From the NCBI GenBank assembly GCA_030167865.1, contig JALAGF010004474.1:1-46856 (forward strand): a stretch of DNA of 46,856 nt, given 5' to 3'. The notes beneath the pieces were generated by a model. The model made no database searches and was not told where the DNA came from. It was given only the letters and a program-made list of their open reading frames with translations. A program made the translations under genes and the position numbers. Below, one piece after another: positions 11,409-46,276 of this stretch; position 1 is the stretch's first letter; each line of letters starts with the position of its first letter. The DNA comes from Craspedostauros australis. Taxonomy: Eukaryota.

Positions 11409-11530
11409 GGTTGCTGTTTTTGTGGATTGCTTTGGTGCCCTTCTGATGCAGGTTGAACAAACAAATGAAAACAATGACTGTGAAATCGAATCCTTTTCCG
11501 AATTGTGTGGTCGTGTCGTTGTCTTTGTGC

Positions 11531-11595
11531 TTGTTGTTGTTGTTGTTGTTGTTATTGGACGACGACGACGACGACGATGACGATGATGATGACGA
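11531..11595. repeat. Compound microsatellite (GTT)n/(GAC)n/(GAT)n upstream of the desaturase
   Basis: Directly visible trinucleotide runs. Confidence 0.85.
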
Positions 11596-12388
11596 TACAA
11601 GTGACCACAACAATAATACCGATGGGTTCCAGTCGATTGTTCTGTGATAGTGATGCGGCACATGAGATGAAACGAGGAATGAAGAAGAAACGTGGTGCAA
11701 CGTTGCCTTGTGGACCAATCAGAGAACCAAAGCGCCGAGCAGCCACATGAACTGCCGATACCACCACATCACGCATGGATGCGACACAAACAAACTTGTG
11801 GCGGAAAAATGACTGAATCCGCGCGAAATGCGCGAAATGAAAGTTCCCATCCACTCGTGACCAAGCGAGAATGAATGGAAACAGGACTGTTGAGATTTAT
11901 TGGTTGCTCGAAGTAATCGAGTGCCAACATTCGACAAGAGCGACTGCAACGGAGTCGTCAGCAGTACGTCAGTCAACATCAAAAGCATGAAAAAGAGAGT
12001 CAGGATCATCACTACGACAGTTTGATCTTGCTGATGTGTTGGCCACCATGGTGGCGTTGACACGCGAGATGGATCCACGCTGCCAGCAACGGCCATCATC
12101 GGCACGAGAAAAAGTGGACAGCGTCAACATCTGCATCAGCATCCGTTTGTTGGAGTCATCGGGCATCATCGACAAGAGCAGAACATACAATAGCTACAAC
12201 CAGGGTACGAGCAGCCAATAGACCGCACCATACAACATCCAGCAACCTCCCATCCCGTCATCTCACTTCCTCCTCAGCTCACCAACTGTCTCTCAAGACC
12301 CGTTCGCATTCATCCAGAGACATCAGTCCGTAGATTCATACACATTCACGTACCATACTCCAAAGTCCTCCCTCACATCACCGCCATC

Positions 12389-21972: not shown

Positions 21973-22573
21973 TTGTTTGTGTTATTGCTTGTGTTATTGC
22001 TGGTCTTGCAACTGGAGTCGCAGTCGCATTCCTGTGCACCGATGGGTGTCAACCGATCCGATTGTTGGCACAGTGAAACAGGGAGAGGGCAACGAGGTGC
22101 ACGTCTTCCCTTCTCCCCTCCATGTCTCTCTTGGCCTTCGCGGAGGACACGAAAAGGAAGGCTTCTGCCTCTCGGATTTGATTCACTCTTGTCTTGCGTG
22201 CCAACGTATCTTGTGTCCCGGTCATTCTTGGATGCCACAGTCACACAGACATCGCACACCCACATCATCCACCAAGCGCACAGACAATCCTGCGGGACTG
22301 ACGTTTTCCAAATGATGTGGTCGTGATTCCATCGTCCACCAACAACACATCAAACGTCAACGCATCAACCAACAATCAAATCAACATCACGGATCGCGGT
22401 CTAACATCGTCATCTCAAACGAATACGATCCACAGCAATGCAGGAATCTATTCTCTGTGAGTTGAGAGGCACCCTCATCGATCTCCATCTCTTCCGAACC
22501 ATCGTCGTCCTGAGGTGCATTGATTGAAGGAACAGCGCTTATCATAACAGAAGAAATCGATATATCCATCACC

Positions 22574-23789
22574 ATGAAGCTCGCCATCATTAGCATCATT
22601 CTCGCTTCCATCCACGGAAGCGCCGCCTTCACGGCACCGCGTCTTGCGTACAGCAGCCAGCAATCACTGACGAGAACGACAGTATCCCTCAACCTGCTGG
22701 ACCCCAACCACGTCCTGGAATCCGCCTCCAACTTCCTGGCCGACGTGCCAGACAAGGACTTCATCCCAGGCACGTCCGGCGAGGTCACGTACTCGCGTGC
22801 CAGCTACTACACCATCCTGGGCCTTTACCTCACCTCCTTCCCAGGACTGTGGTCCACCGTCAAGCGTTCCACCAATGCCAAGATGAAGAAGAAGACCTAC
22901 GTCACGCCTGGTGAAAACGTGGATGATGGCAAGAGCTTGCGGGAGCAGGCTGGTGAAATCATGGCCTGTGAGTTATCTGCGTCGTCGTTGGTGTTGGTAC
23001 TTGGGATTGCTATGGTGCATGCTGTTGCCATCATGAATTGCATTGTATTGTATCACATTGCTTCGGAGCGTTCTATCACATTTCATCCACTTCGAATACG
23101 CAAACTCCAGGGCTCCACAACCATTCACAATTACAGCACTATACTCACCCATGCATTCCATGAATCACATCAACTCCAAACATTACGACACACGATCGTG
23201 CAACACTCAGACATGAAATCGAACAATTACGAAGTCGTGGAGGCTGGTGAAACCATCACATTCCGTGGCCTCGTCCAACGCAGTTTGTCACAAGCCATGT
23301 TCTTGGTGTTCTGCACTGCCATCGGTATGGCATCGTTGGCGTTGGTCTTGCAGATTCAATTTCAGGGTTTGGGTAAGTACTGTCCTCAATTGCATTGTAT
23401 TGCGTTGCATCATATTGTATTGCATTGCGTTGTATTGCATTGTGTTGCATGCCCCGTTTTCTCTCATTCGACATCATTCCAATTCTCACATTATCATTTG
23501 TATGATGTTTCACAAACAACATACAATATCCCATATACGCACAGTCCTCCCGGTGATCGGAGAGCCCAACTGGTTCCTCCTCTGCCTCATCGCACCGTAC
23601 GCCGGAATTTACTACTGGACATCGGGCGATCGCGTCGATGATTGCGAGGTCAAATTGGAAGCCAATGACGATGACACCGAAAATTCCATCACCGTGTTGG
23701 GATCGGAGGAAGAATTGGAACGTATGTGGCGAACGCTGGAATGGCAAGAAAAGGGAATGGTCAAGGTGCAAGGATTGTTGGACGCGTAA
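22574..23789 (+). CDS. CCB1: Cofactor assembly of complex C subunit B, CCB1 (cytochrome b6 heme ci attachment); exons 22574-22967, 23211-23372, 23545-23789 (~266 aa)
   Basis: Motifs YSRASYYTILGLYLTSFPGLWSTVKRS, GETITFRG, PYAGIYYW, EELERMWRTLEWQEKGMVKVQGLL. Two GT-AG introns restore the frame. Presequence ends SAA-F. Confidence 0.9.
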
Positions 23790-24092: not shown

Positions 24093-27000
24093 TCATAACA
24101 CGCCCACGCAATATCGTTGATACCGATCGTACCAATCTGTCCTCCAATTCTCCAAACTCTCATCGACCAACGCGTTGACGTACTCCATGCAGGCACGATC
24201 GTTGAGATCGAGACGGAATCGTTCGCGCAATCCTCGAATGGCGTCGTCCGGTCGTCCGCGGAAGCATGCCAGGTCTTCGTTGCCCTTCTTCAGCATTTCC
24301 ACCAGCAGAATGATCTCCATGCAGTTGCGGCGCAGGGCGATGAAGCATTTGTAACACAAGAGGCGGAACGTGCGGAATAAGCGTGATTCGGGTCCATCCA
24401 TCACCTCCACCATCTCGCGGGATAATTTGAACGGCGCGCTTTCGAATCCGGTGTTCTTGCCCGGCGACGACAGGAAGAAGAATCCGAAGTCAATGTGAAT
24501 CAAATGACCCAGATTGTCCAGCAGAATATTGCCGTTGTGTCGATCCTTAATCTGAAGCAAGAAGCAGACGATGGAGTACGCCGCGAGGCTTTCGCAGAAG
24601 TTGGCCTTCGCGGCCGCCAGATCGTCCGACTCATCACCGAAGAAGGTGTGGAAGAAGTCCCGCAAGTTGGTGTAGTCAGGATCGTTCTTCTTGAGGGATG
24701 CGATGGAAATCGTGTCGGGGATGGCCTCGATGATGCCACCTCTGTCCGTGATGGCGAGGATCTCGTAGGGGCACAGCCACACAGGGACTCGTTCGCGAGC
24801 AAGGATCATGGCGATTCGGAAGATGAGCTGCGATGCCAGCTGCTCCTGCCTCAGATCGTCGTTGGACTTGATGAGGATGGGAACGAGCTTCCAATCGGGA
24901 TGCGACCCATAGATGGACTTGGCGCTTATCCTGTCCTCCTTGTCCATCCATTGCTCCTTGAAGACGACCGGAGGTGGCCGTGCCTTGTTCGCCTTGCGTG
25001 GATCCTGTTGGATGCTATCTCTCGAACGGGTCCGTTTGTGGGTGCGCGTGGTGGCTTGCGTTCTTCGATTCGTCACGCCATGCGCGCCGTAGGTTTGATG
25101 ATCGCTGTTGTTGTTGTTGTTGTTGTTGGCGGCGGAAACTCGATTGCGTGGAGCGTTCTGCGAGACGATCATGGTGGGCATCACCAGAGAATCGTCCATG
25201 GGATCCACCACGCTCTTTTGGGACATACGGGCGTGAACACTGGGTGAGGCCCATTGTCCCATAACTTGTGTGCTCTTTCTGGCTCGCGGGGTTCCCGGTG
25301 GTGACGGAGGGATGACCACATCTGCCGACTCATCAAACGTGACCAATGACCTCCTCATGCCTGGACGACTCGGTACCTTGAGAACACCGCTGGCCTTGCC
25401 GTTGGGTTCTGCGCGCTTTTCGGATCCTTGCGCTGGTTTGGATGGCGTCCCGGATTGCGATTCATTGGGACCGCGTTCGATATCCGTGGTAACCACGGGC
25501 TTGCCCGATTCTGTTGGCGACGGCGGTGCCGATTCGTCAATGTTGTCGGGGACATTGAGAGTGAGCATTTCGCGGATACTCTGATTCGTCTCGCGCAGCG
25601 TGTGTCGCACACTCGTTCTCATCTGATGCAACGGGATTTTGCGAATGCTATGACGCACCGAGTGTGCCAACTTCTTCAACGGGGCATCGCGGCGATGGGG
25701 ATCGCGATCTCCGAATCGCCATTCCTGCAGCAATTGGTATTCTTCTCGCGACGTGGACGCATCCAACCCGCTGCGCGAGGTGCGATGAAGCGTTCTCCTG
25801 GCCTCGCCCGATCCCGCCTTCGATGGACATTGGATGACTTCCAAACAGACGATGCATGGCACGCGTTCCTTGGTGCTGATGGCGATGGATTCATCCGCGA
25901 CGATCCTCCACACTCTGTGGTCACAATCGCGAATCGGGAGGTAGACAGAATTGGACGGCAACGCCTGGCACTCCAAGATCTTGAGCCGTCTCACGAGCTC
26001 GTCGGCCCGTTTCTCTTTCGGTGTTTCGAAGAGACGATCGGCCATATCCAGCAAAGAGTCCAAGAAGAGCGGCGTGACATCGAAGAAGGTGTCGCCGAGA
26101 TCGGGTTCGGCGCTCGCCGTGAGATCCAAAGGTAGGAAGCCGAACTTGCGCTGCGCCGAATACGAATCCCAATGGCGCGTCGATGGCATGCCCGTCTGCG
26201 GATCGATCGGGATGGTCCCCGATTCTGCCGCGAGCATCAACGCGGACGGCGAGACCTCGATGGTGGTTTCCGCGTCAGCGTGGCCGTTGCCAAACTGCTT
26301 CAACCTCGCGGCCTCTTCGCCGTACTCCATGACGCGGATGAGAAGTCCTTCGAGGACCATGCGCTCCTGCGGCAGGAACTTGTTTTCGGCGCCGCTCGCG
26401 TCGTCATCCATGGATGCGAGCAGCTCGGTGCTGGACGCCGCCACCATGCTGGACATGCTGTTGGAGCGACTGATCCTCTGCTTGTCGGCCGACTCCTTGA
26501 TCTCGAGGCACCAGGCACGCAGGAACCAGTAGCAGCGATGCGCAAAGTAGACGTTGCGCTTGCACTTTTCGAGCACCCAATTTTCTAGGTCGGCGGACGA
26601 TTCGTACGCGCCGTGGAGGAGGAAGGATAGCAATTGCGGCACGAAGAACATGAGCGAGGCGCCATCATCGGCCGCGTAGACGTAGTCGAGATGGCCGTTG
26701 CGCAGGACGTCTTCGTAAGCAAAGAGCTGCAGCAGGACGCGGAAGGGGGTTAGCTGGCGATGCATGATGTCCTGGCCGTTGTGCGAGCGGCTCGTGGAGG
26801 ATCGGTAGTCGCTGAGGAACTTGGTCCACTCCTTCTTGGTCGCCTTCATGCGCGACTGCACCTCGTGCACGAACTCCGCCGTCATGAGCTGCAATCGGTT
26901 GTTGAGGGAGCCGTTGGAGCCCTGTCGACGCAGCGGTCTGGGGGCATTGTCGGTGGACTCGACCGATCCGGGCAGCAATGAATTGAGCTCCGGGTCGTCG

Positions 27001-27506
27001 CCCTGCTCCCGCACGAAGTAGAAGAGCACGCGCTGCCTGCGGCCCTGAATGTCGGCGCTGGCGGGCGCCGTCGATCGCACATGCAGGAAGAGGAGGACGT
27101 GGCACATCGCGGACAGCAGGGACAGGCCCAGCAGGGTCCACACGTGCCTGGTCAGCTCGTCGTGGTGCGTGAACGAGCGTCCCGGCGTCGGCACAAGCGT
27201 CGTGAGGCTCTGCGGATCCACCATGCCGAGCGACAGCATGTGCAGCAGCACCGTGAAGATGGTGGCGACGTAGAACGTCTGGTAGAGGCAGGGGCATTTG
27301 ACGGCCGTGCCCGTGTAGGATCGGTACGTCAGAGGCACGATGAGCAGCACCAGCCGCAGTATCGCCACAGGCAAGATGTAGGGGGTCTTGAACACCGCGC
27401 GTGCCTCCAGTTCGGCCTGCGCATTCGCCACATCGGCGTGCAACGAGAAGTGGACGACGATGGTGTCGCACACGGCCGCTCCGATGGCGGGGATGAGGAA
27501 CGGCAT
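24093..27506 (-). CDS. Phosphatidylinositol 4-kinase, type III-beta/Pik1-like, with N-terminal hydrophobic helices
   Basis: Motifs IKSNDDLRQEQLASQLI, IKDRHNGNILLD, HIDFGF, FESAPFKL, STKERVPCIVCLEV, and helical-domain FFVPQLLSFL. Confidence 0.93.
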   Translation of the reverse strand: MPFLIPAIGAAVCDTIVVHFSLHADVANAQAELEARAVFKTPYILPVAILRLVLLIVPLTYRSYTGTAVKCPCLYQTFYVATIFTVLLHMLSLGMVDPQSLTTLVPTPGRSFTHHDELTRHVWTLLGLSLLSAMCHVLLFLHVRSTAPASADIQGRRQRVLFYFVREQGDDPELNSLLPGSVESTDNAPRPLRRQGSNGSLNNRLQLMTAEFVHEVQSRMKATKKEWTKFLSDYRSSTSRSHNGQDIMHRQLTPFRVLLQLFAYEDVLRNGHLDYVYAADDGASLMFFVPQLLSFLLHGAYESSADLENWVLEKCKRNVYFAHRCYWFLRAWCLEIKESADKQRISRSNSMSSMVAASSTELLASMDDDASGAENKFLPQERMVLEGLLIRVMEYGEEAARLKQFGNGHADAETTIEVSPSALMLAAESGTIPIDPQTGMPSTRHWDSYSAQRKFGFLPLDLTASAEPDLGDTFFDVTPLFLDSLLDMADRLFETPKEKRADELVRRLKILECQALPSNSVYLPIRDCDHRVWRIVADESIAISTKERVPCIVCLEVIQCPSKAGSGEARRTLHRTSRSGLDASTSREEYQLLQEWRFGDRDPHRRDAPLKKLAHSVRHSIRKIPLHQMRTSVRHTLRETNQSIREMLTLNVPDNIDESAPPSPTESGKPVVTTDIERGPNESQSGTPSKPAQGSEKRAEPNGKASGVLKVPSRPGMRRSLVTFDESADVVIPPSPPGTPRARKSTQVMGQWASPSVHARMSQKSVVDPMDDSLVMPTMIVSQNAPRNRVSAANNNNNNNSDHQTYGAHGVTNRRTQATTRTHKRTRSRDSIQQDPRKANKARPPPVVFKEQWMDKEDRISAKSIYGSHPDWKLVPILIKSNDDLRQEQLASQLIFRIAMILARERVPVWLCPYEILAITDRGGIIEAIPDTISIASLKKNDPDYTNLRDFFHTFFGDESDDLAAAKANFCESLAAYSIVCFLLQIKDRHNGNILLDNLGHLIHIDFGFFFLSSPGKNTGFESAPFKLSREMVEVMDGPESRLFRTFRLLCYKCFIALRRNCMEIILLVEMLKKGNEDLACFRGRPDDAIRGLRERFRLDLNDRACMEYVNALVDESLENWRTDWYDRYQRYCVGVL

Positions 27507-28554
27507 GTTCGTGGCTGTGTCTGTGTCTATGCCTGTGTCTGTGTCTGTGCCTTTGTATTGAGGCTGCCGTTGCTATACCCCAATAGAATACAATATTAGA
27601 TGATGGAGCCGTATGATCCCGTGCGCAATTGGGGATGCTCTGGTGGCGAAGCTGACGGGAACGAATCTCAGTAGCGTGCGATTCGTCTCCGCTGCGCGAG
27701 TGGGCACTATAGTATTCTATTCTGCTATAGTCTGCTCTATTGCCTCTCTTGCTCTGATCGGCACAAAAAGCACAATACAGCACAGTCTCTGATGTCTGAT
27801 GCGCTGTTGTAGAATATGTGCTCAGGGTGTGCTTGCCTTATCTTGTGTGGTGTCTTGTGGAGTATGATCTGTTTGTGTTCCTGTGGTTGTGGTTGGCGAC
27901 GCAGTCCCCGTTTTCTCCAGATGCCTCTCCTTCTTCATCTCCCCACCAACCGCAGACATGGCAGCAACAACGACAAGAACAGCGACGAAGACGAACTTGA
28001 CAGTCGTGGCGCGCGTTTTTGGAGGCATTTCGGAGACGCCTTGTTCTCTCTCGTCCTCTAGCTTCGTGGTAGCGTTGCACGTGATTGACCTTTTTGAACG
28101 AAGAAGACATGGGCAAGACATCTTGTACGACAAATGTTTGTCCGATAAGATATTTTGGTTTTCCGTTCACTGCGCACGTTTCGAATAATGCTATTTAACT
28201 CAAATTCACCGCTTCTCCAAGGAAAGAGGAAAAACGGAGGATGCGAGATCGCGGAAGTCTCGATGTAGAGCAAACGAAGCTACAAGTATGTGTGTATCTG
28301 CGCATTTCGTCCCTGGATCGGTCGCGAATGAGGTCGGTCTCCCCATCTCATTCCTAGTCCATCCAGTCTCGCTTCAGCCTTGTTCCGACATCACTGTTGC
28401 ATCGTGGCTACCATCGCATTCATTCCTTCATCAGGCACGATTTGCCAGCTCGCAACCTTGCTTCCTATAGAATAGAGCATTATAGTGTATCACATCACAT
28501 CACATCATGTCATATCGTATCATTTTATATTCGACCATTGAGAGAGTAATTGAA

Positions 28555-29937
28555 TCATAACTCCACGTGGTAGTGCTCCCCATATTGCCCCTCTACCGTG
28601 TACAATTCGAAGCCTTCCTCCTTGTCCTCCGTGTACAGCCGGAATGTGTGGCCCGGGTGGGACGACTCGACGAAGGTCTCGCCCTGCTTGATGTGAGAGA
28701 CCTGGATCTCTCCGCCGTACTCGTGATCGGCCCAGTAGAGATCGATGTCCTTCGTTTTGGCGGAGAAGGTCACCTTGACGTAGGCATCGTGCGGCAGATC
28801 CTCGCCGCTGAGCAGGGCCTCGACTCCTATGGCGACCACCTGCACCTGCTCGTCGGTCAGGACGGGGATGCGGGACAGCGCGACCGCGGAGTTCTCCTTC
28901 ATGTGCCCGAGGTTGGTGCTTCGCGGAATGACGGTGATGTGGTGCTGAATGAGCCACGCCAGAACGATCTGGGCGGGAGAGATCTCCTCGCCGGGATTGA
29001 GCGCGTCGGCCTTGTAGAGCTCCTCGTCGATGCCGCTGGCGACGGACATGATGTGGTGGAAGGCGTTGGGCGCGCTGTTTCCTTTTCGTATGACGGACTC
29101 CATGACATTGAACGTCATCAGGTGAATGTTGTTCCTGTGACAAAACTCCACGAGCAGCGGGTCATACAGCAGCGACCACATGCTGGTCTGCACGATGTGC
29201 GGCTGCACCTTTGCCAGCTCCGTGAGCTCCGTCAGCTCTTTGGTGTGAAAGTTGGAAACGCCGATGCTGGCGACGGGGCTGGACTTATTGAGGTACAGCT
29301 CCTCCAGGGCCTTCCAGCTGCCCTTCCAGGCGTTGTCTTTGTCGAGGTGCGGTGCCGGTCCTGCCGCCTTGACGTAGCTGGGCAGCGCCAATTCCTCCTG
29401 CTCGCAATCCATCCATTGGATGCTGTCGTAGCAACGCGGCCAGTGGATCAAAAAGTGGAGCTTCAAATCAACATCCTTGTCGTCTATGACCTCCTTGAGG
29501 TCCGCCAGCGACCCTTCCACAGCCAGCTTCGTGCGCTCGTAGCCAAGATGCGTGTACCAGATCTTCGTGACAACATGAATTTCGAGCCGCTTGGTGGTGG
29601 TCGTCGCTCTTATCTCCTCAACGCCCTCCACGATTCCTTTGGCCACATACCGTTCGTTCCGACTGATGTGCGACGTGTCGATTAGCCGGATCTTCTTGTC
29701 GTCGCGGATGGCATGGTTTATAACGGCAGGGATGACCTCGGCCATCATGTTGCCGACGCCGAGTCCGACGAGGGGGAGCTTGACTCCGTTCGACAATCTG
29801 GCTGTCGGGATCTCGTCGTCATTCCGTCTTCCGCCGAACACGCGCTTGAAGAACCCTTGCTGTGCATCGGAATGTCCTATCAGTGAGAGCAGCAAACATG
29901 CCAGATGGATACCCCTGAGCTGTAATATTCGCTTCAT
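28555..29937 (-). CDS. Secretory-pathway AKR-fold protein with a C-terminal VHL-beta-like domain and an HVEL end
   Basis: Signal peptide (SDA-Q). AKR segments LSNGVKLPLVGLG, IDTS, VTKIW, IHWP, WKALEELY, IGVSNF, VIPRS. C-terminal DLYW...G......SHPGHTF segment. Confidence 0.85.
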   Translation of the reverse strand: MKRILQLRGIHLACLLLSLIGHSDAQQGFFKRVFGGRRNDDEIPTARLSNGVKLPLVGLGVGNMMAEVIPAVINHAIRDDKKIRLIDTSHISRNERYVAKGIVEGVEEIRATTTTKRLEIHVVTKIWYTHLGYERTKLAVEGSLADLKEVIDDKDVDLKLHFLIHWPRCYDSIQWMDCEQEELALPSYVKAAGPAPHLDKDNAWKGSWKALEELYLNKSSPVASIGVSNFHTKELTELTELAKVQPHIVQTSMWSLLYDPLLVEFCHRNNIHLMTFNVMESVIRKGNSAPNAFHHIMSVASGIDEELYKADALNPGEEISPAQIVLAWLIQHHITVIPRSTNLGHMKENSAVALSRIPVLTDEQVQVVAIGVEALLSGEDLPHDAYVKVTFSAKTKDIDLYWADHEYGGEIQVSHIKQGETFVESSHPGHTFRLYTEDKEEGFELYTVEGQYGEHYHVEL

Positions 29938-31302
29938 GTTGATTCGCTCTGGTTGGTTGGTTGCTTGGTTGGTTGATGGTTGCTAATGGATGGTTGCCAA
30001 TGGGTGATTGCCAATGGATGATTGATGGGTGGATCGGTCCGACTCGTGTATGTACGAGGATGGATGAGTGAGGGAGTATGCGAGTGCGTGCGTGCGTGCT
30101 GCCTACCTCTCAATGGAGTATGAATAGAGTATGAATAGTGTACGATTGAGTATAGTGGTCTGAAGGGTGAATAAATGAATGCCTAATCCGACGGCGTTGA
30201 TAGATTGGTTGATGGATCCGATGGATGGACGCGCCGATGCTCGGATCGCTAGATGAACTGATTGGGTTGATGCGTTGATGGCTATGATTGAGTCCAGCTA
30301 TCGATGCTCACAAGAGAATGTTTGTGTTACTTGGACGAAGATGGAATGGAATGGAATCGAATGCTTTTGATGATGTTCAGCCAATGACTCTGTACAACTA
30401 CGAAGTCTCTGATGGCTCGAAAGACCTCAGCCACAAGATTCGGAGTGCGAAAAAGGTTGGATGTCCCTTGTGTTCGCGATGCAGCAGGTTGGGATTGTAT
30501 TGGCGCGGTTGCAGGAACAAGCGGATGCTCCAGAGCGGTTGCAAGATGAAGGCAGATCTGTGATGAGCCTCGGCAGATGTCGACGGCTGTGATTGATGCC
30601 GAATGGTGACAGAGATGAGGATGTCCGTGGTGGCGGTCCCTTGTTTGTTGTCCCGTGCTTGCTACCTTGTTGAGTGTCAGTGTGTCGGTGACTGCTAGTT
30701 GCTCTCTTGTGTGGTATGTCTGGGTGTGGCCACGAGTAGTCGTTATGGTTTAGTCTTCGCCTCAGCGCAATCTTTTCGTCACAATTTGATGCCCCTGCAA
30801 CTCGTTCGATTATCACAACAGAGGGCCAGGCGTGGAGTAGTTGTTTGCCATGCAACCGAACCCTCTCCTCCTTGGCATCGCGTCGTTTTGTCTGACTTCG
30901 GCGGAAGATTTTGGCTGTTGTGCCAGCTCGATGACCCCCCGACGAGGTTTGTGTCCATCGAGGTCGTTCCTCGTGATGTGACGATGACCTCTTTTTCCGA
31001 TTGCTCGTGACTGGAGGTCCCGTACCTTCCATTTGGATTGGCAACTACAATTGGGACTTTCATAGTACATCCGTCGCCTTCCTTTCATCCACGACTGCAG
31101 CAACGTTTGAAACAACCGAAGCCGAATCGTTTGACATCACCAAACAAACACCCAACATGTCTGGTCTCGCGGCGGCACCGGTGCTGATGTGTGATGTTGT
31201 CTCCGTCCCTCCTCACCCTGACGAATTCCATCGCGGACGCGTACACACACGCAGCCTGCAGACACAACTCCACCCATCGTAACTGACAGTCGCAGCTCCA
31301 AC

Positions 31303-32196: not shown

Positions 32197-33101
32197 AGCG
32201 TTCGCACAGCGTGTTCGAATCCACGCGGGGCATCCGCGGGTCATTGCGCTGGTTGTTGGAACTTCCATTGGAGACCATCCCCTGATTGAATTCATGCCAT
32301 GACGGGTCATCAGCAGCCTCATCCACAAGCTGAAACAAACTTCTGCGGCCTTTGGTCCTGCTACCATTGCTTTGCACGCATTCGAGATGCGATTGAGGCA
32401 AGACAACTATTGCAGCACAGTGGAAACTATTATATGATAGAGTAAATGAAAGACTGACGACTTAGATCGCACTGCAGGAGGATCAATGTATTATATTACA
32501 CGTCCCATGATCCAATCTCTCATGTGGAGTGCTCAGAGATGGTCGCCAAGTTGGGTGCATCATGTCGTGGTAGAACAGATCCAGCTTCTTGCTTCGTTTC
32601 TGCAATATCAATCGTGAATTGACTCGTTCGATTACAGGTCAGACCATCAAGAAGATCATGAAAGAAGAGAACACGAAGCCAACAGAGAAACCTGAAACCA
32701 CAACGCGCGACATCAACAGATACCATCGTGTCGCGTTCCACGACGCAACATCGTGTTGAGATGTCATGTGATGCCATGCGATTCAGAAAGAACATTCTGA
32801 TGATGGGTTGACGATCGACTGTCCAAACACAAGCATACTATACTATGCATACGAGCAGACCATAGGGAGAGAGGCTCTGAGTGACGACAACATCCATATA
32901 CATAGAGAGAGAGAGAGAGCGTCGTACTCTACCATACTTGTGCGAGTTCAAGTGCGAGGACGAGCAGGAGCCTGAGCACATCACGAGAGCAATCCGAGAC
33001 ACGATCGTGGAAAGCGGTCAGTCGTTGCGCGAGAGAAGAACACAGAGCAGAGTGCTCTGCCACAAGAAGAGATCATCAAAGACAACTCATAACGAAGAGA
33101 A

Positions 33102-34379
33102 ATGAATCGAGCCGGCGCAAAGCCCAACAGCGACATGCCGGACGTCTACCTGCTGGGCAGAAAGTACAATGCCATCCACGAGCATGACAAGCGGAAGCAG
33201 TACGAGACGTCGCTGTTTTGGTTCACGTACCGCTGCGATTTCCCGAGCATCGAGCCGTACAAGATCACGACGGATGCCGGCTTCGGCTGCATGCTACGAT
33301 CCGCCCAGATGATGCTGGCGCAGGCTCTGCGGATGCACTTCCGATCGCGGCATTGGAGACCTCCGCGGCAGGTGCAAAAATGCAGAGACGATCCCTTCAT
33401 GGCGAAGCTGTTCACGTGGTTCGCCGACTATCCAGGCAAGGAATGCATCTACTCCGTGCATAACATGATCGCGACGGGTCTGCAGTACGAGATCCTTCCC
33501 GGTGAATGGTACGGCCCAGGATCCGCGTGCTGCGTCGTCCGAGACCTGGTCCAGATGCATTCGAAGCAGAATGAGCTGAAGGATTTGTTCCGCGTCCACG
33601 TGGCTTCCGAAAGCACAGTGTACAAGGACACGGTATACGAGGTCATGACCACGCAGAGCGGACAACGCGCGAAGCAGCGCGAGTCTGTCAACTCCACGCT
33701 GGATCCGCTTGCGCAACATCCCTTGGATCCGTGCCTGCCGGATCCCATGGAGGAGACCAAGAAGCTGCGCCAGCTGGAGTGGGATACTGGATTGCTGCTC
33801 TTGATACCGTTGAGACTGGGGCTCGATCAATTCAACGAACGCTACTCGGAGCTGTTGGCGAGAACCTTCTCTTTTCCTCAATCGGTGGGCGTGCTGGGTG
33901 GACGGCCGCGGGGTGCGCGGTGGTTCTACGGGGCGCACTCGGATGGAAGCAACGTGCTGGGATTGGATCCGCACACGGTGCAAACAGCGCCGCAGCGACG
34001 CACCATCCGAGCTGGGAAGCTCAGCAAAACATCCGTCAGCGTGTCGGAGGACTACGTCCATTCCATATTCACCACGTGCCCGGAAACCTATCCCATATCG
34101 AAGATGGATCCTTCCCTTGCGTTAGCGTTCTATTGCAGCGACCGAAAGGACTTCCTGCATCTGGAAGAGTTATTCCGAGACCTCAAGCAGACCGACCCCG
34201 AACAGCTGGAACTGTTCACATTTTCTGATTCAAAACCGGACTATTCGTCGGGTGCGCTGAATAGCATGATGCAGGGTGGGGGTGCAGGAATCGCAGACTT
34301 TGACGACGATGACGGCATTGATGGATTTGATGAGGAGTCGGATGCCGTCAGCGATGAAAGCGACTACGTCCTTCTGTAA
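33102..34379 (+). CDS. ATG4: Autophagy cysteine protease ATG4 (peptidase C54)
   Basis: Motifs WFTYR, TDAGFGCMLRSAQMMLAQAL (catalytic Cys), GEWYGP, LIPLRLG, LDPH, MDPSLALAFYC. Acidic C-terminus ends in LIR-like DYVLL. Confidence 0.94.
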   Translation: MNRAGAKPNSDMPDVYLLGRKYNAIHEHDKRKQYETSLFWFTYRCDFPSIEPYKITTDAGFGCMLRSAQMMLAQALRMHFRSRHWRPPRQVQKCRDDPFMAKLFTWFADYPGKECIYSVHNMIATGLQYEILPGEWYGPGSACCVVRDLVQMHSKQNELKDLFRVHVASESTVYKDTVYEVMTTQSGQRAKQRESVNSTLDPLAQHPLDPCLPDPMEETKKLRQLEWDTGLLLLIPLRLGLDQFNERYSELLARTFSFPQSVGVLGGRPRGARWFYGAHSDGSNVLGLDPHTVQTAPQRRTIRAGKLSKTSVSVSEDYVHSIFTTCPETYPISKMDPSLALAFYCSDRKDFLHLEELFRDLKQTDPEQLELFTFSDSKPDYSSGALNSMMQGGGAGIADFDDDDGIDGFDEESDAVSDESDYVLL

Positions 34380-37874: not shown

Positions 37875-39430
37875 ATGTCGTTTGGAGACAACTTTCGAAT
37901 GCTACCTTCCACAGCCACCATGGTGAGGAACGAGGACGAGAATGCTGCGAGCATCGGCAACACCAATGCCAACAACGACCGCAGCATGCGAACGACCGCA
38001 GGTTTTGGAATCCTTCCCTCGTCTTTGCTACCAAGTTCAGCTGCAACAGATCCCAGCACATCATCACAAAGGACGTCGACCAGTCTAACCGCGAGCATCA
38101 CAACTGGCCCAAGTGGCAGCATTGTGGCTGAAGGCTATCTGGAGGCCACCATCTTCTCTGTCTACGATCTTACAACGAGTCGTCAGCCCATTGCGGTGAT
38201 CATGAACATTGGCAACGTGACTGTTTCCACAGGGCCTCCAGTTGCCAAGCACAAGGATCGAAACTCCTCGCGGTCCAGCACTGGCAATGCATCCACGCCA
38301 GCATCGGCAGCTGCATCGTCCAGCATGCGCACTTCATCAACGGACAGCGCGAACAACGTCAATGCGAAAAGCCACATTCTGCGCATCGCCAAGCCCTTTC
38401 CGCAGCCGTACAGATCGACCGCGACGATCCGCCTGATCTGTGATGACCCAGATCTCAACCTGGAAACGAGGCTCTCGCTCAACGATCTGCGCATTCATTA
38501 AACATCCTGGCAGATTCTCAATTTCATCCAATCGCCATCATCATCGTCATCACCAACATCAACACCACCTGAAACAGCAGCAGCAGCAGCAACAATAACT
38601 GGAAGGATCCCGAATGCTGCTGGCAAATCTGCAGCTACTCGTGCGGCGACAGCATTGGCCGCGGCAAGATCATTCGCTTCATCGGTTGGCGATGACGTCA
38701 GCGACAATCCATCACCGACCATACGAGTCAAGCTTCATCTGGATGCCCCCGTACCGACCCGAAATTGCAGCGTTCATCGCCATCGCACAATGGTGGTTCC
38801 ATCTCGTCGATCCATCCGATGATTGGATACGGGACGCTGCATCCAAGATACGCCTACCGACATCCTCCAATATGCTTCTCCTGCCATTGATTCTGCTCAT
38901 CACGGTCCTCGTGGTGGTGTCGACCGCCATGATGGACAAGCTCCTCGTTCTCCTGCCCGTCGCGTTGCCGTTCATCATCATCGCGATCACCCCGATCGTC
39001 GCGTCCAACCTCGTGATGTATTCCAGCACACGGCATGGACGCGAACGTGTTGGCGGCACGGTGTTCATACCCTTCGCCGATTTGTTGCTGTTGCCATCCA
39101 AGGCAGGGCAGCAACTGATCTACCAAACTGGACCGCGCCCAACGCCCGTCAGCCTCGTGCGGTACATCCTGCCGACTGATCCCAACTCCCTGTGGGTGTC
39201 GTTGGCGATAGACTTCGTGGATTCATCGTCGTACCTGTTGCCAGTCGTCGGCAAACTGTGCGATGTGATATGCACGCCGATCCAATCCATGCCGGTGATA
39301 GCCATGTACGACTCCGTCCACTCCGACTTGAAGTACGTGAGCCTCGTGGAGGAGCTGATGCCGTTCACAGATATCGTGTCAGCGGTGACAATTGGATGGA
39401 CCAGGGAGCACTACGGTGTTCATTCGAAGG
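37875..39430 (+). pseudogene. Disrupted gene: C2-like N-terminal region plus membrane domain, with a premature stop and a frameshift
   Basis: Protein-like text continues through TAA at 38499-38501 (LRIH*TSWQILNF). It then switches frame at a C-run, 38746-38750 (TIRVKLHLD / PYRPEIAA). The 3' limit is approximate. Confidence 0.65.
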
Positions 39431-40048
39431 GCACCAACGGGTCGAGGATGGAGGAAATGAAGCAAGCCGCGAGACCTGGCCATGGCCGCCGGCTGTTTGC
39501 GTTGCGACTCCATGCGGCATGCGCAGATTTGCCGATTCTATCATTCTCCGACACGAAAATACTGTGGAACCGACAAGTGATATCTTCTCTCTCTCTCTCT
39601 CTCTCTCTCTCCAGAGACTTCCAACGCCTCCAGTTCCATTCTTTTCTCCTGGTCCGTAATACTATTGTATTATGAATGTTGGGTATGAGAATGGATTTCA
39701 TGCAGTCCTCGTACCCGGAGCGTATCACCACGGAATAAACATGAATCCGATCAAAATGGTAGCAAGCACACCTGCCATACGTACAAGAAATATTCTGCGA
39801 GCGGTCTGCATACGACGAGCTATGCGGACGGAGGAGATTGGTAATGCACGTATGTATGTGCTTCTGTGAAGACGTTATAACATGTATCATACCATGGAGT
39901 AGACTGTTCATTCTTCAATCCTCGGGCTTCGATGGCATCCGTCATCCCATGGTCAAGGATTGTGACACAGCCTGGCGAGAGACCACCATCTGCCTTCATT
40001 GCTGCAACAGGAGCTGGATGCACGAGTATCCATACTCGTTGAGTGGTC

Positions 40049-43000
40049 TCATTTGGAGCTCTTCGACAACTTGCTTGATTTGGGTGACTTGGGAGACTTC
40101 GTCTTGCTCTCCTTGGATGACTTGTCCGATTTGTATGATTTCGCCCCCTTCGTGCTGCGCATGTAAGATGGTTGAGAGGAAGGGAAGGACGACGGCGTGG
40201 ATGGTAGCGCAGATGACGGCGCGGACGACAGCGCAGATGGTGTGGACGACAGCATGGATGACGGAGCGGATGACGGCGCGGACGACGGCGTGGATGGTAG
40301 GGCAGATGGCGGCGCGGACGACAGCGTGGATGGTAGCGCAGATGGCGGCGTGGATGACGGCGCGGACGACAGCGCAGATGATGGTGTGGACGACAGCATG
40401 GATGACGGAGCGGATGACGGTGTGGATGACAGCATGGATGACGGAGCGGATGACGGCGCGGACGACAGCGTGGATGACGGAGCGGATGACGGCGTGGACG
40501 ACAGCATGGATGACGTCGCGGATGACGGCATCATCGAGTTGCCGTCGCAGAATTCCAGTGAACCCATGAAGTACTCAAAGAAACCATCGTAGAGAGGAGG
40601 AGGATAATCACCGACACCAGCGCTCGCCATTCCCGTAAAGATAGTGAATGGGCAATTGTCGCAATCAAGCCAGTCTGGAGGGATGGGAATGATGTTCCTC
40701 GAGAAGTCATCCCCCACGTTCGTTCGTGTATCGATGCGTATGGAGATCACGCCGTCGCTTTCGGACACAGCCAAAGGTTGGTCGAATACAATCACATCTG
40801 TGAATTCACCATCACCTCTGGCCTCGATCGTTCCCGATGCAAGTTCTGTCCAATTTCCGGGTGCATCCCAAGTACTTGGGCGGTAGAAGATTGTGAAAGC
40901 TTGGTTCCCCGTCGGTGGCAGGACAAGTCTCATGCCTGTGATGTCGACACTATCCAGAATCTGAATGTCGTGTCGCACCGAAGCGACCGAGTCGTCATAG
41001 AATGATCTTGGGAGACCTGCTGTTTTTGCGTCGTGGCAGGTGTCTGTTGGTGCCTGTGTGGGGCCTGCGGATGGCTGGATTGATGACGATGGTGTCGTAG
41101 TGGGGGGAGCAGATCCAGTGGGGGGAGCAGATCCAGTTGGCGGCATCTTCGAGTTGCCGTTGCAGAATTCCAGTGAACCCATGAAATACTCAAAGAAATC
41201 ATCGCAGAGAGGAGGAGGATAATCACCGACACCAGCGCTCGCCATTCCCGTAAAGATAGTGAATGGGCAATTGTCGCAATCAAGCCAGTCCGGAGGGATG
41301 GGAATGATGCTGTACGACAATTCATCCCCTGTGCTCGTTCCTGTATCGATGCGGATGGAGATCACGCCGTCGCTTTCGGACACAGCCAAAGGTTGATCGA
41401 ATACAATCACATCTGTGAATTCACCATCACCTCTGGCCTCGATCGTTCCCGATGCAAGTTCTGTCCAATCCCCGGGTGCATCCCAAGTACTTGGGCGGTA
41501 GAAGATTGTGAAAGCTTGGTTCCCCGTCAATGGCAGGACAAGTCTCATGCCTGTGATGTCGACACTATCCAGAATCTGAATGTCGTGTCGCACCGAAGCG
41601 ACCGTGTCGCCAAAGAATGATCTTGGGAGACCTGCTGTTTTTGCGTCGCGGCAGGTGTCTGTTGGTGCCTGTGTGGGGCCTGCGGATGGCTGGATTGATG
41701 ACGATGGTGTCGTAGTGGGGGAAGCAGATCCAGTTGGCATCTCGGTGCTCAGATCCGGGCAGAATTCGAGGATGCCGAAAAAGGCGGGGAACCGATCGCG
41801 GAAATTGGGCGGTCTGTTTCCAACTTCGAGGCTACCTTGTCCGGTGAATACCTCGAATGGGCAGTCTGGGCACTCGAAGAAGCTCTCCGGGATCACAATC
41901 GGAGATGATGAGGACAAAGCCTTCAATCTGTCGGCCATGTCAATGCGGAAGGATACAATGTCATCCTCCGCAGACACCACCACTGGCTGATCAAATATGA
42001 GGGAGGGGGAGAAGCCAGACGAGTCCTTTCCCCCGTTGTTTCCTGATGCAATCTGAGTCCAGTTGCCATCGGCATCCCAGGTGCTTGGACGGAAGAAGAT
42101 CGTGTATGGCATGTTGGTGAATTCAGCAGCCACGGAGACCTTGATGGCGGTGANTTCGANGCTGTCCAGTATGCGAACATCGAATCTGAATGACTCAGTG
42201 CGCTCAGCTGAGCGAGGTTCGCTGGNCGNNGTGAACTCCCACACGTCGCAAATTCCGGTTGGGACTGATGACAATGATGGTGCCATGGAAACGGATGGTG
42301 CCACACTTGGTGATCGACTGAGATCGAATTTCACGCTCACCGTCGCACACATGGGTGTGGTCGAGTCATCATCGATGTTGGATACCGAAATGACGATCTC
42401 ATCCAGCAAAGACGACTGGGCATCAATTCTGTACGATGATTGTGTCATGTTCAGGATGGCCTCCAGATGAGAGAATCGCCTCTGGGCAGTGCCGTGGTCT
42501 TGTGCCCTTGTCACGAGGACCTGATCCCTGCCCAGCGGAGAATCGGCGTTGAAGCCAATGGCTCTGTTGAAGGCGATGTAGTAGTTCAATTCACTCTCAG
42601 GATCGTCAATTCGGATGATGACATCGAAACTGGTGTCAGCGGGGTCATAATCGACCACTCCGCAGAGCCTTCCCTCGAAGTCGATGTCTTGACCTCCAGT
42701 GAGCAATGTGGTCTGATCGGAGTACCACCCCATCAGCCAGCTCTTGGCACCTATGTGTGGTGGAGGGGCAGGCGCATGAGTAATGATATTGAAGAGGTAG
42801 GTTTGCAGCATGAGCATGAGAGCGTGAAATGATTTGGCGTGGACGTAAAGAACGAAACGATTGGTGAGGCAGTGTACGCAGACCGTCGCATCGCGTCGTA
42901 TCGCATTGTATGCGATGAGGTGACAAGACTCCTCCTGGACCGGAATCATCTGGGTCCTTGCTCTCCACAAGGCGGCACCGTAGCACTTACCGTTGTATCC

Positions 43001-44811
43001 CACCTTATCGGTCAGAGTTTCATTACCAAATGGACCAAAAACTGTTCCGCCCATCGCGCCGCTGCGGAATAATAGTCGATGTTGGGGTCGGAATCCATTG
43101 ACCGGAAAACGGCAACAATGAGGAAGAGGATCCACGAAGACGGGGGTTAGATGGGCTTCGACGGAGAAAACAGGGTCCCTATCATGTGGTGAGGACCAGA
43201 ACATGGCAGACGCGTCCAATGTGCTCTCTCCGGAGTTCGATTGTGTGCGTTCTTGTGTCCGATCGTCCATCCGCCTGCAAAGATTGATGCAGAATGTCAC
43301 AGATCGTCTCCAACCTCTCTCTCTCTCTCTCTCTCTGCTGACGCGTTGGCTGCGCTTACCTGGAATCGTCATACTCTACCCCGTTCCGATTGGAATGGTC
43401 AAGCCCAAAGTTGTGACCGAGTTCGTGGATGATGACGTAAGGGTTGGTTGCCCAGTGCGTGTCTGGATAGTTTCTGATGCTGTTGTACATGCTGATCTTT
43501 TGGTCGAGATAAGCGTACGCTGTGAATCAGTGGTGTGTCGGTTGCATTGGTGCGCGTTAATAATCGGGAGAGTTTGATTCGCGCGGAAAAAGATGGTGTT
43601 ACACGTTGGAGTGAGATGGGTTAGATAGGAGTATGGGCATGGGTAGAGCTCATCACGATACCAGTGCGTAATGTTGACATGGAAGATACGAGTTGTGTGG
43701 TCCTTGTCGGCACTTACCGGTCCAACCAGTTCCAAAGCGGTTCTCCAACCCGAACGGGACCATGATCAAGAAGAAATCAAAGTCATCATAGATCTTGACC
43801 TCCTGCTTCAGATATTGTGAGATGGCATTATCAACTCTTCTTGCCTCGAGAGTGGTGGGATCAACGTCAGGTGAAAACCCAACTGTCAAAATCCCATCAT
43901 CTGTCCCATTCGTCGGCATGGTGGAGAGCCTCAGCTTGTCAAAAGACATGGCCGCGAACTGGCCAGTGAAGTTGGGTTGAGAGCCGAAGATCTCGTCTTT
44001 GATGAGGGATTTGGGAACTGTGTAGTTGGTTTGGAAGACGACCTGGATGAGGAGGAACTTCTTGTCGCCAGAACCACGGACATCAGGAGTGGTCAGAGAA
44101 CGACCATGTCCATGGCCATCGCTTTGTTCGCTTGGTTGATGATGCTCGATCGTCATGTCATCGATGGTCGTCAAGTCCGGCAGCTTCAAGGAGAAGTCGG
44201 TGACATCGATGATGACATTCTCCAGAAACAACGTGGACTTGGAAGAGAAAGTTGGCCATGCACGGTTGTTCTTGGCCCATTCCGGCGTCAGCCCTTCGAT
44301 GGTCAAATGCACAGGCCCATGCGCTTCCGCATCGGAGCCTTGGAGCATGCACGAGAAGTCAGTTGCATCATTTCCGTCGACAGTGCCAATAATACATGCC
44401 GAGACGAGGCATGGCTCCTGTAGGATACTGTGTTCGCCCGAGGCAGCGCCATGCGTCTGAATTGAGTTCGATTCAGTTGTTGGTTGTGTGATGAAGGACG
44501 TGACACGACGTGATGTGAAGTCATGCGTTGTAATGTAATGCATTGTATTATATAATACAAGGTGCAGAATCATGGTTGAGTTGAGGATGAGGTCATTGAA
44601 TTGGATGCACGTACGCGTATGTCTGTGGATGTGGATGCGGCAAGGCGAGAATGCCAGCAAAGAAGGAGCCCCCACACGTCGAGACAACAGTGACAGTTGC
44701 CATCTTGCTCGTACTCACCAACCACCTTGACATCGGGGATGCCGCTGCCGTAACGACAAGCACCGCAAGCACCAGAGCAGCAAGGATTCGTTGGTAGAAG
44801 TGAGAATGCAT
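40049..44811 (-). CDS. Secreted gametolysin-like (M11) zinc metalloprotease with three tandem beta-rich domains, a Ser/Pro stalk and a KxxK tail; exons 44811-44719, 44456-43718, 43519-43360, 43061-42991, 42750-40049 (~1254 aa)
   Basis: Signal peptide in exon 1. Exon 3 encodes HELGHNFGLDHS. Splicing gives GWT|AYAY, EYDDS|SGAMG (Met-turn) and GYN|GAKSWLMGWY. All four introns are GT-AG and the exons sum to 3765 nt. Confidence 0.86.
40190..40530. repeat. Coding minisatellite of 12-bp units encoding SSAP/SSTP/SSML/SALP
   Basis: Tandem gacggcgcggat / gacggcgtggat / gacagcatggat variants. Confidence 0.9.
40536..41738. repeat. Near-identical intragenic tandem duplication, period 615 bp
   Basis: aacccatgaa occurs at 40561 and 41176; tgtctgttggtgcctgtgtg occurs at 41041 and 41656. 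Confidence 0.93.
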
Positions 44812-46276
44812 GGCTTTTCGTCATCAACGAGATGAAGGATTTATGAGATGATTTGGAGTCCTTTGGAGGAAGGAACGAACAGCAATAGGAACTGCTGCCA
44901 TTCCTTCACCAGCCACCACCTTCGTTGTTTTTCGCATGCGGTGAACACTCCCCTCTTGTGTGGGTGGGCTTTTCGGTCGCCTCTTTTCGCAACTGGGGTT
45001 GATGGCAGGTTGGGGGTGTGTTCATGATCGGTGGTGGAGCACTCGTATTGGCACGGTATCCATGGAGAAGACGGGGAAGTGGATGGGCGGGAAAGCATCT
45101 GTCGCAGAATAGCAGCCAGGTGTACACCTGTGGGTTGCTGCGCCATGAGCACGCGTACGACAATGAGTCGCTCGCTCGCGCATCACGTGTCATGGTGGGT
45201 GGTACTGGTGTTGTCTCTGTGGCCGTTCGCTGGAACTTCGTGTGCCGACGTTGCTCAACTCCATCACGTGATTGTGCAGAGAAGCCACCCCCGACAGTTC
45301 GCTTGGAAAGATCCGGCCAACACCAATTTTGTGGAAGAACAGAACAACGTTGTCGTGTTGATGTCGTCGGAACGATCCGTTTGTGGCCAACCTCTTGTCA
45401 CACGTTGTCAACGGAACTCAAATTTATTGCTGGAACTACCCTGAGCGCACTTGAGTGATCGTGACATCGGATTTGTGGCATTTTGCGCCCATTGGGTCAT
45501 CGAAGTGACGATCGGATGACACCATCCGCGTTTGGGCGCTTCGCACAAAAGTATCAAGGAATCCCGGATGAAATTGACTCGCTCGACTTATCTCAGTCGT
45601 GGAACGAGCCAAGACCGATGATCCATGTTCCGAATTTCGTCTTTTTGGTTCTGAGCCCATTCAGTCACAAACCAACGAGTCGCGGGGGGAGACATTTTTT
45701 GGTAGTTGGTCCGTCCTTCCGAGGCTCTCACAGTGCGCCGTGTTGTAGCAATGCTCCGTCGGTCCGACTTTTTGACGAGAACCGTCAATCTTCCGTCAAT
45801 GCCGGTTCAACAAAAACGGGTTGCAGCAAGACGTCGTGTTGATGGTCCACACAGCATTTCCACCTAATTTGGGCCGTGTTTTGTTGTTCTTGTTCGGCGT
45901 GTCGCGGAGTTGTGCTTGTGCAAACAGGCATGCTCGTTTTGGCGAGAACCATCACCATCGCCCGTAGATTTAGTACTGGATGTTTTTATCGCACATCCGA
46001 GCCGTCGCTGCCTGAGCCTTCGCGTATGTTGGCGATCGTGTTGACAGACAGACATATGTGTTGCGCTTTTGACTACTGTCGGTGCGGAAGAGTCGTTTTG
46101 CTTCGGTGATTTTTTCAGTCTGTTCAGGTGATCGTCGTGTTCGACATCACAGCACCGTTGTGTCACAGAATGCGATTACTGGCGACTCGACTTGCACTCT
46201 CGACAGGAACGGAACAGGAACGGAACAGGAACAACAAAATTCCGTCTGCTTTGTCTGGTCAACCAGGGCCACAGGT

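Follow-up and report, generated by a model that had tools for sequence, protein, structure and literature searches.

Peptidases of the gametolysin family (MEROPS M11, Pfam PF05548) are present in diatoms in expanded numbers. In the excerpted literature, 17, 50 and 33 M11 genes are reported for Pseudo-nitzschia (PMC11499653), an expansion is also described for Chaetoceros tenuissimus (PMC8613185), and among the stramenopiles surveyed the family is confined to diatoms and algae (PMC8035641). A role in wall proteolysis has been proposed (PMC11499653, PMC8769554), and an 'autolysin' is induced early during mating of Pseudo-nitzschia multistriata (PMC8769554). Here we describe an M11 gene on contig JALAGF010004474.1 of the diatom Craspedostauros australis (GenBank assembly GCA_030167865.1). 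The whole stretch of 46,856 nucleotides (nt) that was analysed is called the window in the following, and the gene occupies 44811..40049 on its minus strand.

Secreted proteases have been linked to the diatom silica wall before. The excerpts of the relevant papers state that the silaffin-like response genes of Thalassiosira pseudonana are enriched in metallo-endopeptidases (PMC3478156), and that secreted proteases co-regulated with cingulins and silaffins have been put forward as candidates for RXL processing or for trimming of the wall (PMC5501833). In biosilica-associated proteins the propeptide is described as being cut off at an RXL motif (PMC5647440, PMC5525289); such sites were 'thus far only found' in these proteins (PMC5647440), and the propeptides are removed 'by a yet unknown protease' (PMC5525289). 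Proteins with serine protease domains occur in silica-associated proteomes. TpSSP7, TpSSP35 and the silicon-responsive proteases of T. pseudonana are, like the present protein, predicted secreted proteases; a link of theirs to the silica wall, or co-expression with silaffins and cingulins, is on record. TpSSP7 and TpSSP35 differ from it in being serine proteases. Supplement file 6 of PMC3478156 holds, for the silaffin-like response genes, 12 occurrences of the Gene Ontology term 'metalloendopeptidase' and none of 'gametolysin' or 'M11'. The string 'm11' in PMC5501833 probably stems from reference DOIs that contain 'M113' and 'M115', and in the excerpt of PMC6617621 gametolysin figures only as a Chlamydomonas signal peptide.

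Two kinds of lysine cluster have been connected with silica targeting. The pentalysine expression K..K..K.{1,2}K..K was matched by 27 (29%) silica-associated proteins of three centric diatoms as against 1.5% of background proteins (bioRxiv 10.1101/2021.09.18.460806, in excerpt). An LER is defined by at least two K(X)2K motifs that are at most 4 residues apart (PMC9650480). According to the excerpted parts of the latter paper LER1 and LER2 of CinW2 carried green fluorescent protein (GFP) to the frustule in T. pseudonana, and Tp5357, a protein found by screening for a signal peptide, no transmembrane segment and an LER-like region, localised to the frustule.

The gene described here is, we are confident, a real one that encodes a secreted M11 zymogen. 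As the best overall explanation we propose that this 1254-residue zymogen of a raphid pennate diatom is tethered to the silica wall by a lysine-rich tail; this reading is tentative and falls, in our judgement, just short of an even chance. The M11 family as such is already known in diatoms, and three points are new: the architecture of the C-terminal part, the presence of a silica-targeting type of lysine cluster in an enzyme, and an RxL column that the family conserves.

A five-exon gene with a short zinc-binding exon

The region 39800-45100 was read on the minus strand, its frames were listed and the spliced model was built by script. Five exons join to a coding sequence of 3765 nt that contains no internal stop and translates into 1254 amino acids (aa). 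Exon 1 (44719..44811) comprises the start codon and the predicted signal peptide (residues 1-31) and ends at a GTGAGT donor. Exon 2 (43718..44456) encodes the propeptide (residues ~25-152) and, from residue ~160, the N-terminal half of the catalytic domain. The zinc-binding exon 3 (43360..43519) measures 160 nt, and exon 4 (42991..43061) contributes the Met-turn segment with 71 nt. The last catalytic helix, a beta domain, three repeated modules (B1 to B3), a stalk and the tail are all located in exon 5 (40049..42750), and the TGA stop codon (40051-40049) ends the frame directly after the tail. All four introns are of the GT..AG type; in order they comprise 262, 198, 298 and 240 nt, with the donors GTGAGT, GTAAGT, GTAAGC and GTAAGT and the acceptors CAG, CAG, CAG and TAG. 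Intron 3 contains an (AG)n microsatellite (43315-43336). The ATG at 44811 is the first in-frame ATG downstream of a stop (open reading frame (ORF) 44593..44820).

The motif HELGHNFGLDH is encoded at 43427-43395, exactly where an initial annotation of the window had placed it within a 160-nt exon, and corresponds to residues 309-319 with H309, E310, H313 and H319 as the zinc site. Its frame is a stop-to-stop ORF of only 56 aa (43356..43526), and because of this the exon is easily missed; short zinc-site exons thus hide members of the expanded M11 family from ORF-based annotation. Both parts of the metzincin signature are present, the HExxHxxGxxH zinc site and a downstream Met-turn, in which M334 (43054-43052) aligns to a G-x-M-G motif conserved in 15 M11 relatives without an indel at either junction of exon 4. 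The catalytic residues are intact in the spliced model. Pfam scans were run exon by exon. The translation of exon 3 alone matched Peptidase_M11 (PF05548) over profile positions 126-162 of 303, with E 2.9e-07 and a score of 30.2 bits that exceeds the cut-off of 21; this bears out the family assignment made in the initial annotation.

Residues ~160-515 align with diatom M11 proteins as single BLAST segments at about 29-31% identity with E-values down to 5e-35, and residues 160-277, encoded by exon 2, fall inside the one segment. The relative P0001, for example, matches the spliced model in one segment (residues 161-515, E 5e-35) and exon 5 alone with 1.3e-13. In an alignment of 16 rows with M11 relatives no indel is found at the exon 2/3, 3/4 and 4/5 junctions. 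In the same alignment the Met-turn and the conserved segment after it are located to either side of introns 3 and 4. Fifteen of the 16 long relatives chosen pass the Pfam M11 cut-off, the exception being P0104. These alignments show residues ~160-519 of the predicted protein to be homologous to diatom M11 proteins, and at sequence level they support the junctions 2/3, 3/4 and 4/5.

The splicing style has a parallel within the window. The intron in the NAD(P) transhydrogenase gene, taken as a control, is of the form GTGAGT..TAG with 221 nt and phase 1 and is situated between the parts of the gene that match Pfam PNTB_4TM and PNTB. Its removal (7232-7012) restores continuous reading, and its style is the same as that of the introns of the M11 gene. 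The five-exon structure of the initial annotation therefore stands, with a clean frame, GT..AG introns and relatives that align across the last three junctions.

Some points detract from the gene model. It is a prediction from sequence. The exon 1/2 junction, which is in phase 0, is unsupported by homology and depends solely on the splice signals, on frame and phase and on the signal peptide that results. Scanned singly against Pfam, exons 2, 4 and 5 gave no family match; the nulls for exons 2 and 5 have to be counted here. Finally, no orthologue with which the tail, the stalk and the B modules could be compared was found in 15 billion predicted proteins.

Compared with gametolysin and the M11 family in general, the protein shares a Pfam profile match above the cut-off, the HExxHxxGxxH site with a Met-turn and, as far as can be predicted, the organisation of a secreted zymogen with an N-terminal propeptide. 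It differs by a C-terminal extension of about 900 aa and in that only the zinc exon reaches significance in Pfam by itself. With residues 356-1091 (exon 5 to the stalk) as query, exhaustive phmmer searching yielded 387 proteins at E<=0.001, seven of them at E<=1e-10, with a best identity of 38%. The counts of relatives given below refer to the best 150 of these 387. All but one of the 150 match only query positions 1-197, which correspond to model residues 356 to ~550; for P0043 the phmmer stretch is given as 1-362, yet its BLAST match to the model covers only residues 300-524. Word-indexed protein searches with exon 5 and exon 2 as queries returned nothing at E<=0.001. Species names are attached to five of the M11 relatives, and all five come from diatoms (Detonula, Cylindrotheca, Cyclotella, Conticribra and Striatella); examples are the P0066/P0274 cluster of Cyclotella cryptica, P0031 of Cylindrotheca fusiformis, P0015 of Detonula confervacea and P0104 of Conticribra weissflogii. 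With these the protein shares the post-catalytic beta domain and the RxL column, and Pro/Thr/Ser linkers are found in many of them. It differs from them, apart from its C-terminal part, in two cysteines. These are invariant in all 15 aligned relatives and both are replaced here, the first being encoded in exon 2 and the second immediately upstream of the junction between exons 4 and 5. Their joint loss suggests a lost disulfide rather than decay of the predicted protein.

Signal peptide, propeptide and a conserved RxL column

Strong hydrophobicity is confined to the N-terminus of the protein, with a Kyte-Doolittle 19-mer value of 2.43 at residue 9 and a maximum of 1.11 outside residues 1-40. 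The predicted signal peptide, read by eye, has an n-region with R8, a hydrophobic core from residue 9 to 24 and a cleavage site of the AxA type near A22-A24. Judged by hydropathy only, a signal peptide for the endoplasmic reticulum (ER) is present and a transmembrane segment is absent. According to the ASAFAP rule, plastid targeting requires a particular residue after the signal peptide; no Phe is found at +1 after the predicted site, and plastid targeting was rejected.

Between the predicted signal peptide and the start of the catalytic domain lie about 125 aa. The initial annotation had read a prodomain ending in 'GRSL', and these are residues 149-152 of the model. R150-S-L (44094..44102), placed 8-13 residues N-terminal of the first strand of the catalytic domain, is a candidate propeptide cleavage site of the RXL type. 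We compared it with 31 relatives, namely those whose sequence reaches at least 60 residues N-terminal of the start of the catalytic domain. In 19 of them an RxL falls within the last 40 aa before that start, as against 3.0 expected from composition, and the seven other 40-residue bins gave 6/24, 1/29 and then 4, 1, 6, 1 and 0 of 31. A local alignment brings the RxL motifs of the relatives into the column of R150-S-L, and the first strand of the catalytic domain follows after 2-13 residues. The anchors were taken from ungapped offsets of BLAST coordinates, so individual positions should be read as approximate. Many of the 31 relatives are 5'-truncated, a Met start with a hydrophobic N-terminus being present in only 12. 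Within the single protein an enrichment of RxL was rejected (4 seen, 3.0 expected), and only the position is informative. The RxL column at the boundary of propeptide and catalytic domain, predicted in the present gene from sequence and conserved in the diatom M11 family, is new here; among the literature matches listed RXL in diatom proteases is not described, from which it cannot be claimed to be unpublished. The site probably serves for activation: on the strength of the conserved column we think that the propeptide is removed at or beside R150-S-L in an RxL-dependent manner.

A boundary motif of the RXL type throughout the family ties the M11 proteases to the processing of biosilica proteins, as substrates or as the enzyme. 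The second alternative can be taken further. Diatom M11 peptidases might activate themselves at their own RxL and so possess RXL specificity; they would then be the 'yet unknown protease' for silaffins, cingulins, silicanins and SAPs, and the member with a tail would be delivered to the silica deposition vesicle and there entombed or tethered to the wall. If this were true, the protein would be a natural counterpart of engineered fusions of enzymes with silaffins. We give this idea very little probability because a conserved site is equally to be expected in substrates of another convertase.

A lysine-rich tail at the extreme C-terminus

The Lys/Ser tail was delimited by regular expression and by counts of the lysine spacing to residues 1220-1254 (40052..40156). 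Twelve of the 32 lysines of the protein are concentrated in its last 33 aa, as had been read in the initial annotation. They follow each other at spacings of 3, 3, 3, 3, 3, 2, 3, 3, 3, 3 and 3, so that 10 of the 11 intervals are KxxK. The pentalysine expression matches the tail five times in an overlapping manner, at residues 1222, 1225, 1231, 1239 and 1242 (starting at 40150, 40141, 40123, 40099 and 40090). There is no other match in the 431 six-frame stop-to-stop ORFs of at least 60 aa in the window, and none among 120 ATG4 control proteins. The tail also agrees with the definition of an LER, and its composition is near that of LER3-W2 (KSSKGSSKSSK) and LER-5357; the silaffin-like character claimed for it in the initial annotation is thus formally correct. 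The protein as a whole is acidic (149 D+E, 78 K+R), and the tail is its only basic cluster. Tandem Repeats Finder detected no repeat at 40052-40156. That an enzyme carries a lysine cluster which formally qualifies as silica-targeting is new.

The similarity to silaffin pentalysine clusters, cingulin LERs and Tp5357 consists in matches to the expression and to the LER definition, a predicted signal peptide, an RXL site and the lack of a transmembrane segment. All three features by which Tp5357 was found are seen in the present protein. The carrier is different, being a large acidic folded enzyme and not a small disordered Ser/Lys-rich protein. There is a single cluster at the extreme C-terminus, and in it the X positions are occupied by P, E, D, Y, T and L as well as S and G. 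The host is a pennate diatom. A silaffin or cingulin proper was rejected: at 1254 aa and with folded domains the protein is neither small nor largely disordered, and its lysines are clustered in the last 33 aa instead of along its length; only the tail is silaffin-like. An ER-retrieval or glycosylphosphatidylinositol tail was rejected as well, as there is no transmembrane or hydrophobic C-terminus and the lysines are not at -3/-4 or -3/-5. Lysine clusters of other placement occur in some relatives: P0001 and P0144 carry an LER-like K/S/G cluster of silaffin or cingulin style within the propeptide, and P0026 a K/S/G cluster near the N-terminus.

Beyond a secreted zymogen, we infer the mechanism of the proposed wall protease as follows. 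The signal peptide would direct the protein into the ER and, with no other hydrophobic segment, it would be soluble in the lumen. The propeptide of about 125 aa would hold the enzyme latent until its removal at or beside R150-S-L. The three beta-sandwich modules would serve as binding or spacer modules and the glycosylated stalk as an extended tether. The polycationic Ser-rich tail would then fix the C-terminus to the silica wall or to its acidic organic matrix, as pentalysine clusters do, and the catalytic head could trim proteins of the wall or of the extracellular matrix while the wall matures, when cells separate or in sexual stages.

We think it plausible, with a chance somewhat below even, that the tail attaches the protein to the silica wall or to the organic matrix of the wall. 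The estimate is our own; it combines the enrichment of 29% against 1.5% with a prior that we set at a few percent for secreted proteins outside the membrane. We considered as the principal alternative that the enzyme is a freely secreted soluble M11 protease, in which the tail is a low-complexity extension of the stalk without a role in silica binding and with at most an unspecific affinity for acidic polysaccharide.

Several observations weigh against a targeting function, and most of them are also those that favour a soluble protease. The pentalysine expression is matched by 1.5% of background proteins too (bioRxiv 10.1101/2021.09.18.460806, in excerpt). In the excerpted part of PMC9650480, LER3 and LER4 of CinW2, which are closest in style to the tail, left GFP mostly intracellular and so are poor targeting signals, and CinW2 1-187 was still correctly localised after LER1 and LER2 had been deleted. 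The targeting experiments were all performed in the centric T. pseudonana and none in a pennate diatom. Only three of the 150 listed relatives match the pentalysine expression, all in KK/R-rich patches of another kind, and none of the relatives has an S-rich pentalysine tail. The only listed relative with a comparable C-terminal K/S cluster is the fragment P0048, in which it follows a Pro/Thr linker. As far as the aligned sequences go, the tail is not a family feature, and many of the relatives contain PT or SPT linkers but no tail of this kind. It also adjoins a stalk that is a fast-evolving tandem repeat.

The soluble protease is less easily reconciled with the structure of the tail itself. 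The tail is not a tandem repeat at the DNA level, its KxxK spacing is near-perfect, its five matches to the expression are unique among the ORFs of the window, and it is the sole basic cluster on an acidic protein. The enrichment of the expression in silica-associated proteins argues in the same direction. On balance we regard a soluble protease with an inert tail as well possible though rather doubtful. Were it correct, the gene would be merely one more member of a family already large in diatoms. With an enzyme that bears a formally valid silica-targeting cluster, one can ask whether diatoms immobilise enzymes on silica naturally.

Post-catalytic domain, repeated modules and stalk

Residues ~355-519 (42257..42750) contain the last catalytic helix and a beta domain that is conserved in the family; all 150 listed phmmer relatives match here. 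AlphaFold2 modelled residues 356-519 with a mean confidence value (pLDDT) of 82.8 as one helix followed by a beta domain. Among solved structures the sole clear counterpart lies within the zymogen form of InhA2, an M6 peptidase (Z 10.6, root mean square deviation 2.8, 132 residues aligned; the next row has Z 6.5). Foldseek found nothing against the PDB at E<=0.001 for this model, and a phmmer search of the relative P0031 against PDB sequences gave no matches. The structural comparison of the predicted model hints that M6 and M11 peptidases share a post-catalytic domain.

Three repeats of about 190-205 residues each follow: B1 (residues 520-706; 41696..42256) with cysteines at 522, 648, 651 and 685, B2 (residues 707-893; 41135..41695), which is a predicted beta-sandwich module, and B3 (residues 894-1092; 40538..41134), a recent tandem copy of B2 with a period of 615 nt. 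B2 and B3 are identical in 91% of their aa, and their DNA is identical in 93% of the best ungapped 300 nt at a spacing of 615 nt. B1 shares 41% identity with both, the four cysteines and the core motifs being retained. B2 has an extra cysteine at residue 870 that is absent from B3. In the coding sequence of B1 five bases are N (42230, 42229, 42226, 42160 and 42154), which gives X at five codons and leaves the frame unbroken.

No relative of the B modules was detected. A B-module hidden Markov model gave no match at E<=1 in 273 fetched proteins, including the 150 listed relatives; there was none among the best 150 of the 387 phmmer matches, and metagenomes, scanned once with the B alignment and once with exon 5, yielded none either. 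The translation of exon 5 (899 aa) matched no Pfam family at E<=1 and had no sequence match to PF08005 or PF18560. Three orphan beta-sandwich modules in the C-terminal architecture are a new feature.

As to their fold, AlphaFold2 predicted B2 as an eight-strand beta sandwich with a low pLDDT of 56.4, which has to be set against the part assigned to these modules in the proposed wall-tethered enzyme. In VIA-align comparisons this low-confidence model resembled PHR domains (Z 11.0, 9.4 and 9.4; for the first a root mean square deviation of 3.0 over 140 aligned residues) and the lectin-like domain of Cwp84 (Z 8.7). The nearest named Atlas clusters were Lectin_like PF18560 (0.89) and PHR (0.85), both below the lead threshold of 0.9, and Foldseek found nothing for the B2 model against the PDB at E<=0.001. 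The two leads agree, each under the confidence line of its tool, and are a weak indication that the modelled B modules may have a PHR or lectin-like fold. Cwp84, the surface-layer cysteine protease of Clostridioides difficile, is similar in that a protease head is followed by a beta-sandwich module. Neither it nor the PHR domains show a sequence match, and the catalytic class and the organism are different; the resemblance is an analogy of architecture only.

The repeats also bear on the question whether the gene is made as read. The model could be partly wrong or the gene decaying, with a different 3' end or splicing or as an unexpressed copy, so that modules, stalk and tail are not produced in the form described. 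Between B2 and B3 dS is 0.049 and dN 0.047 over 188 codons (6.3 synonymous and 19.7 non-synonymous changes). The resulting dN/dS of about 1, which would be in keeping with decay, is based on changes too few to judge selection and gives no help to a functional wall enzyme either. The five N bases in B1 fit decay as well, and so does the failure of the protein searches to list an orthologue or, in the collection clustered at 90%, the gene's own product. On the other hand a frame of 2.7 kb runs uninterrupted through repeats that are prone to rapid frameshift, the old module B1 still has its four cysteines and core motifs, the catalytic residues are intact and the two conserved cysteines were lost as a pair. 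A defective or misread gene is thus highly improbable.

The modules are followed by a Ser/Pro/Ala-rich, mucin-like stalk, defined by composition (residues 1093-1219; 40157..40537). Of its 127 aa 56 are S, 24 P and 15 A, and its DNA is a tandem array with periods of 12, 24, 36 and 72 nt. The stalk would be O-glycosylated. More than 60% S/P/T in a 60-aa window is also found in 31 of the 150 listed relatives. The presence of three repeated domains and a Ser/Pro stalk had been read correctly in the initial annotation, as had the signal peptide.

Stalk and modules could also be seen in another light. The initial annotation had offered secreted adhesive as a second place of action, and accordingly the enzyme might remodel the adhesive or raphe mucilage, with tail and stalk embedding the protein there and not in silica. 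The grouping of the host with raphid pennate diatoms, a mucin-like stalk and possibly lectin-like modules might be expected of such a protein. This idea found no support: in the main text of the adhesive-trail paper (bioRxiv 10.1101/2023.03.06.531300), as far as excerpted, the terms protease, peptidase, metallo, lysine and zinc have 0 occurrences each, and neither the protein nor the metagenome searches produced a B-module relative. We consider a function in the adhesive very unlikely.

Neighbouring genes and host

The ATG4 (Peptidase_C54) ORF at 33093-34376 has its best named relatives in Cylindrotheca fusiformis (55%), Nitzschia sp. (52%) and Pseudo-nitzschia (51%), and further ones in Epithemia, Mayamaea, Fistulifera and Seminavis. 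By these sequence similarities the host is placed among the raphid pennate diatoms; the collections searched contain no closely related sequenced species. A plastid CCB1 gene is also found in the window.

The NAD(P) transhydrogenase gene that served as the intron control extends over 5795-8970 on the minus strand and is split by its 221-nt intron. The other neighbours with Pfam matches, at 1322-2434, 9915-11768, 13908-15578, 22514-23638, 24096-27572, 28558-29982 and 33093-34376, are ordinary eukaryotic housekeeping genes; their families are two aldo/keto reductases, a fatty-acid desaturase, ELMO/CED-12, the plastid CCB1, a PI3/PI4-kinase and ATG4. The M11 gene is the only wall-related one among the neighbours read by Pfam.

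An open frame of 358 aa on the plus strand (38599-39675) runs towards the M11 gene and faces its 3' end. This frame matches no Pfam family and contains several long hydrophobic stretches, and may encode a membrane protein. A (TC)13 microsatellite is located at 39586-39611, about 440 nt 3' of the stop codon of the M11 gene.

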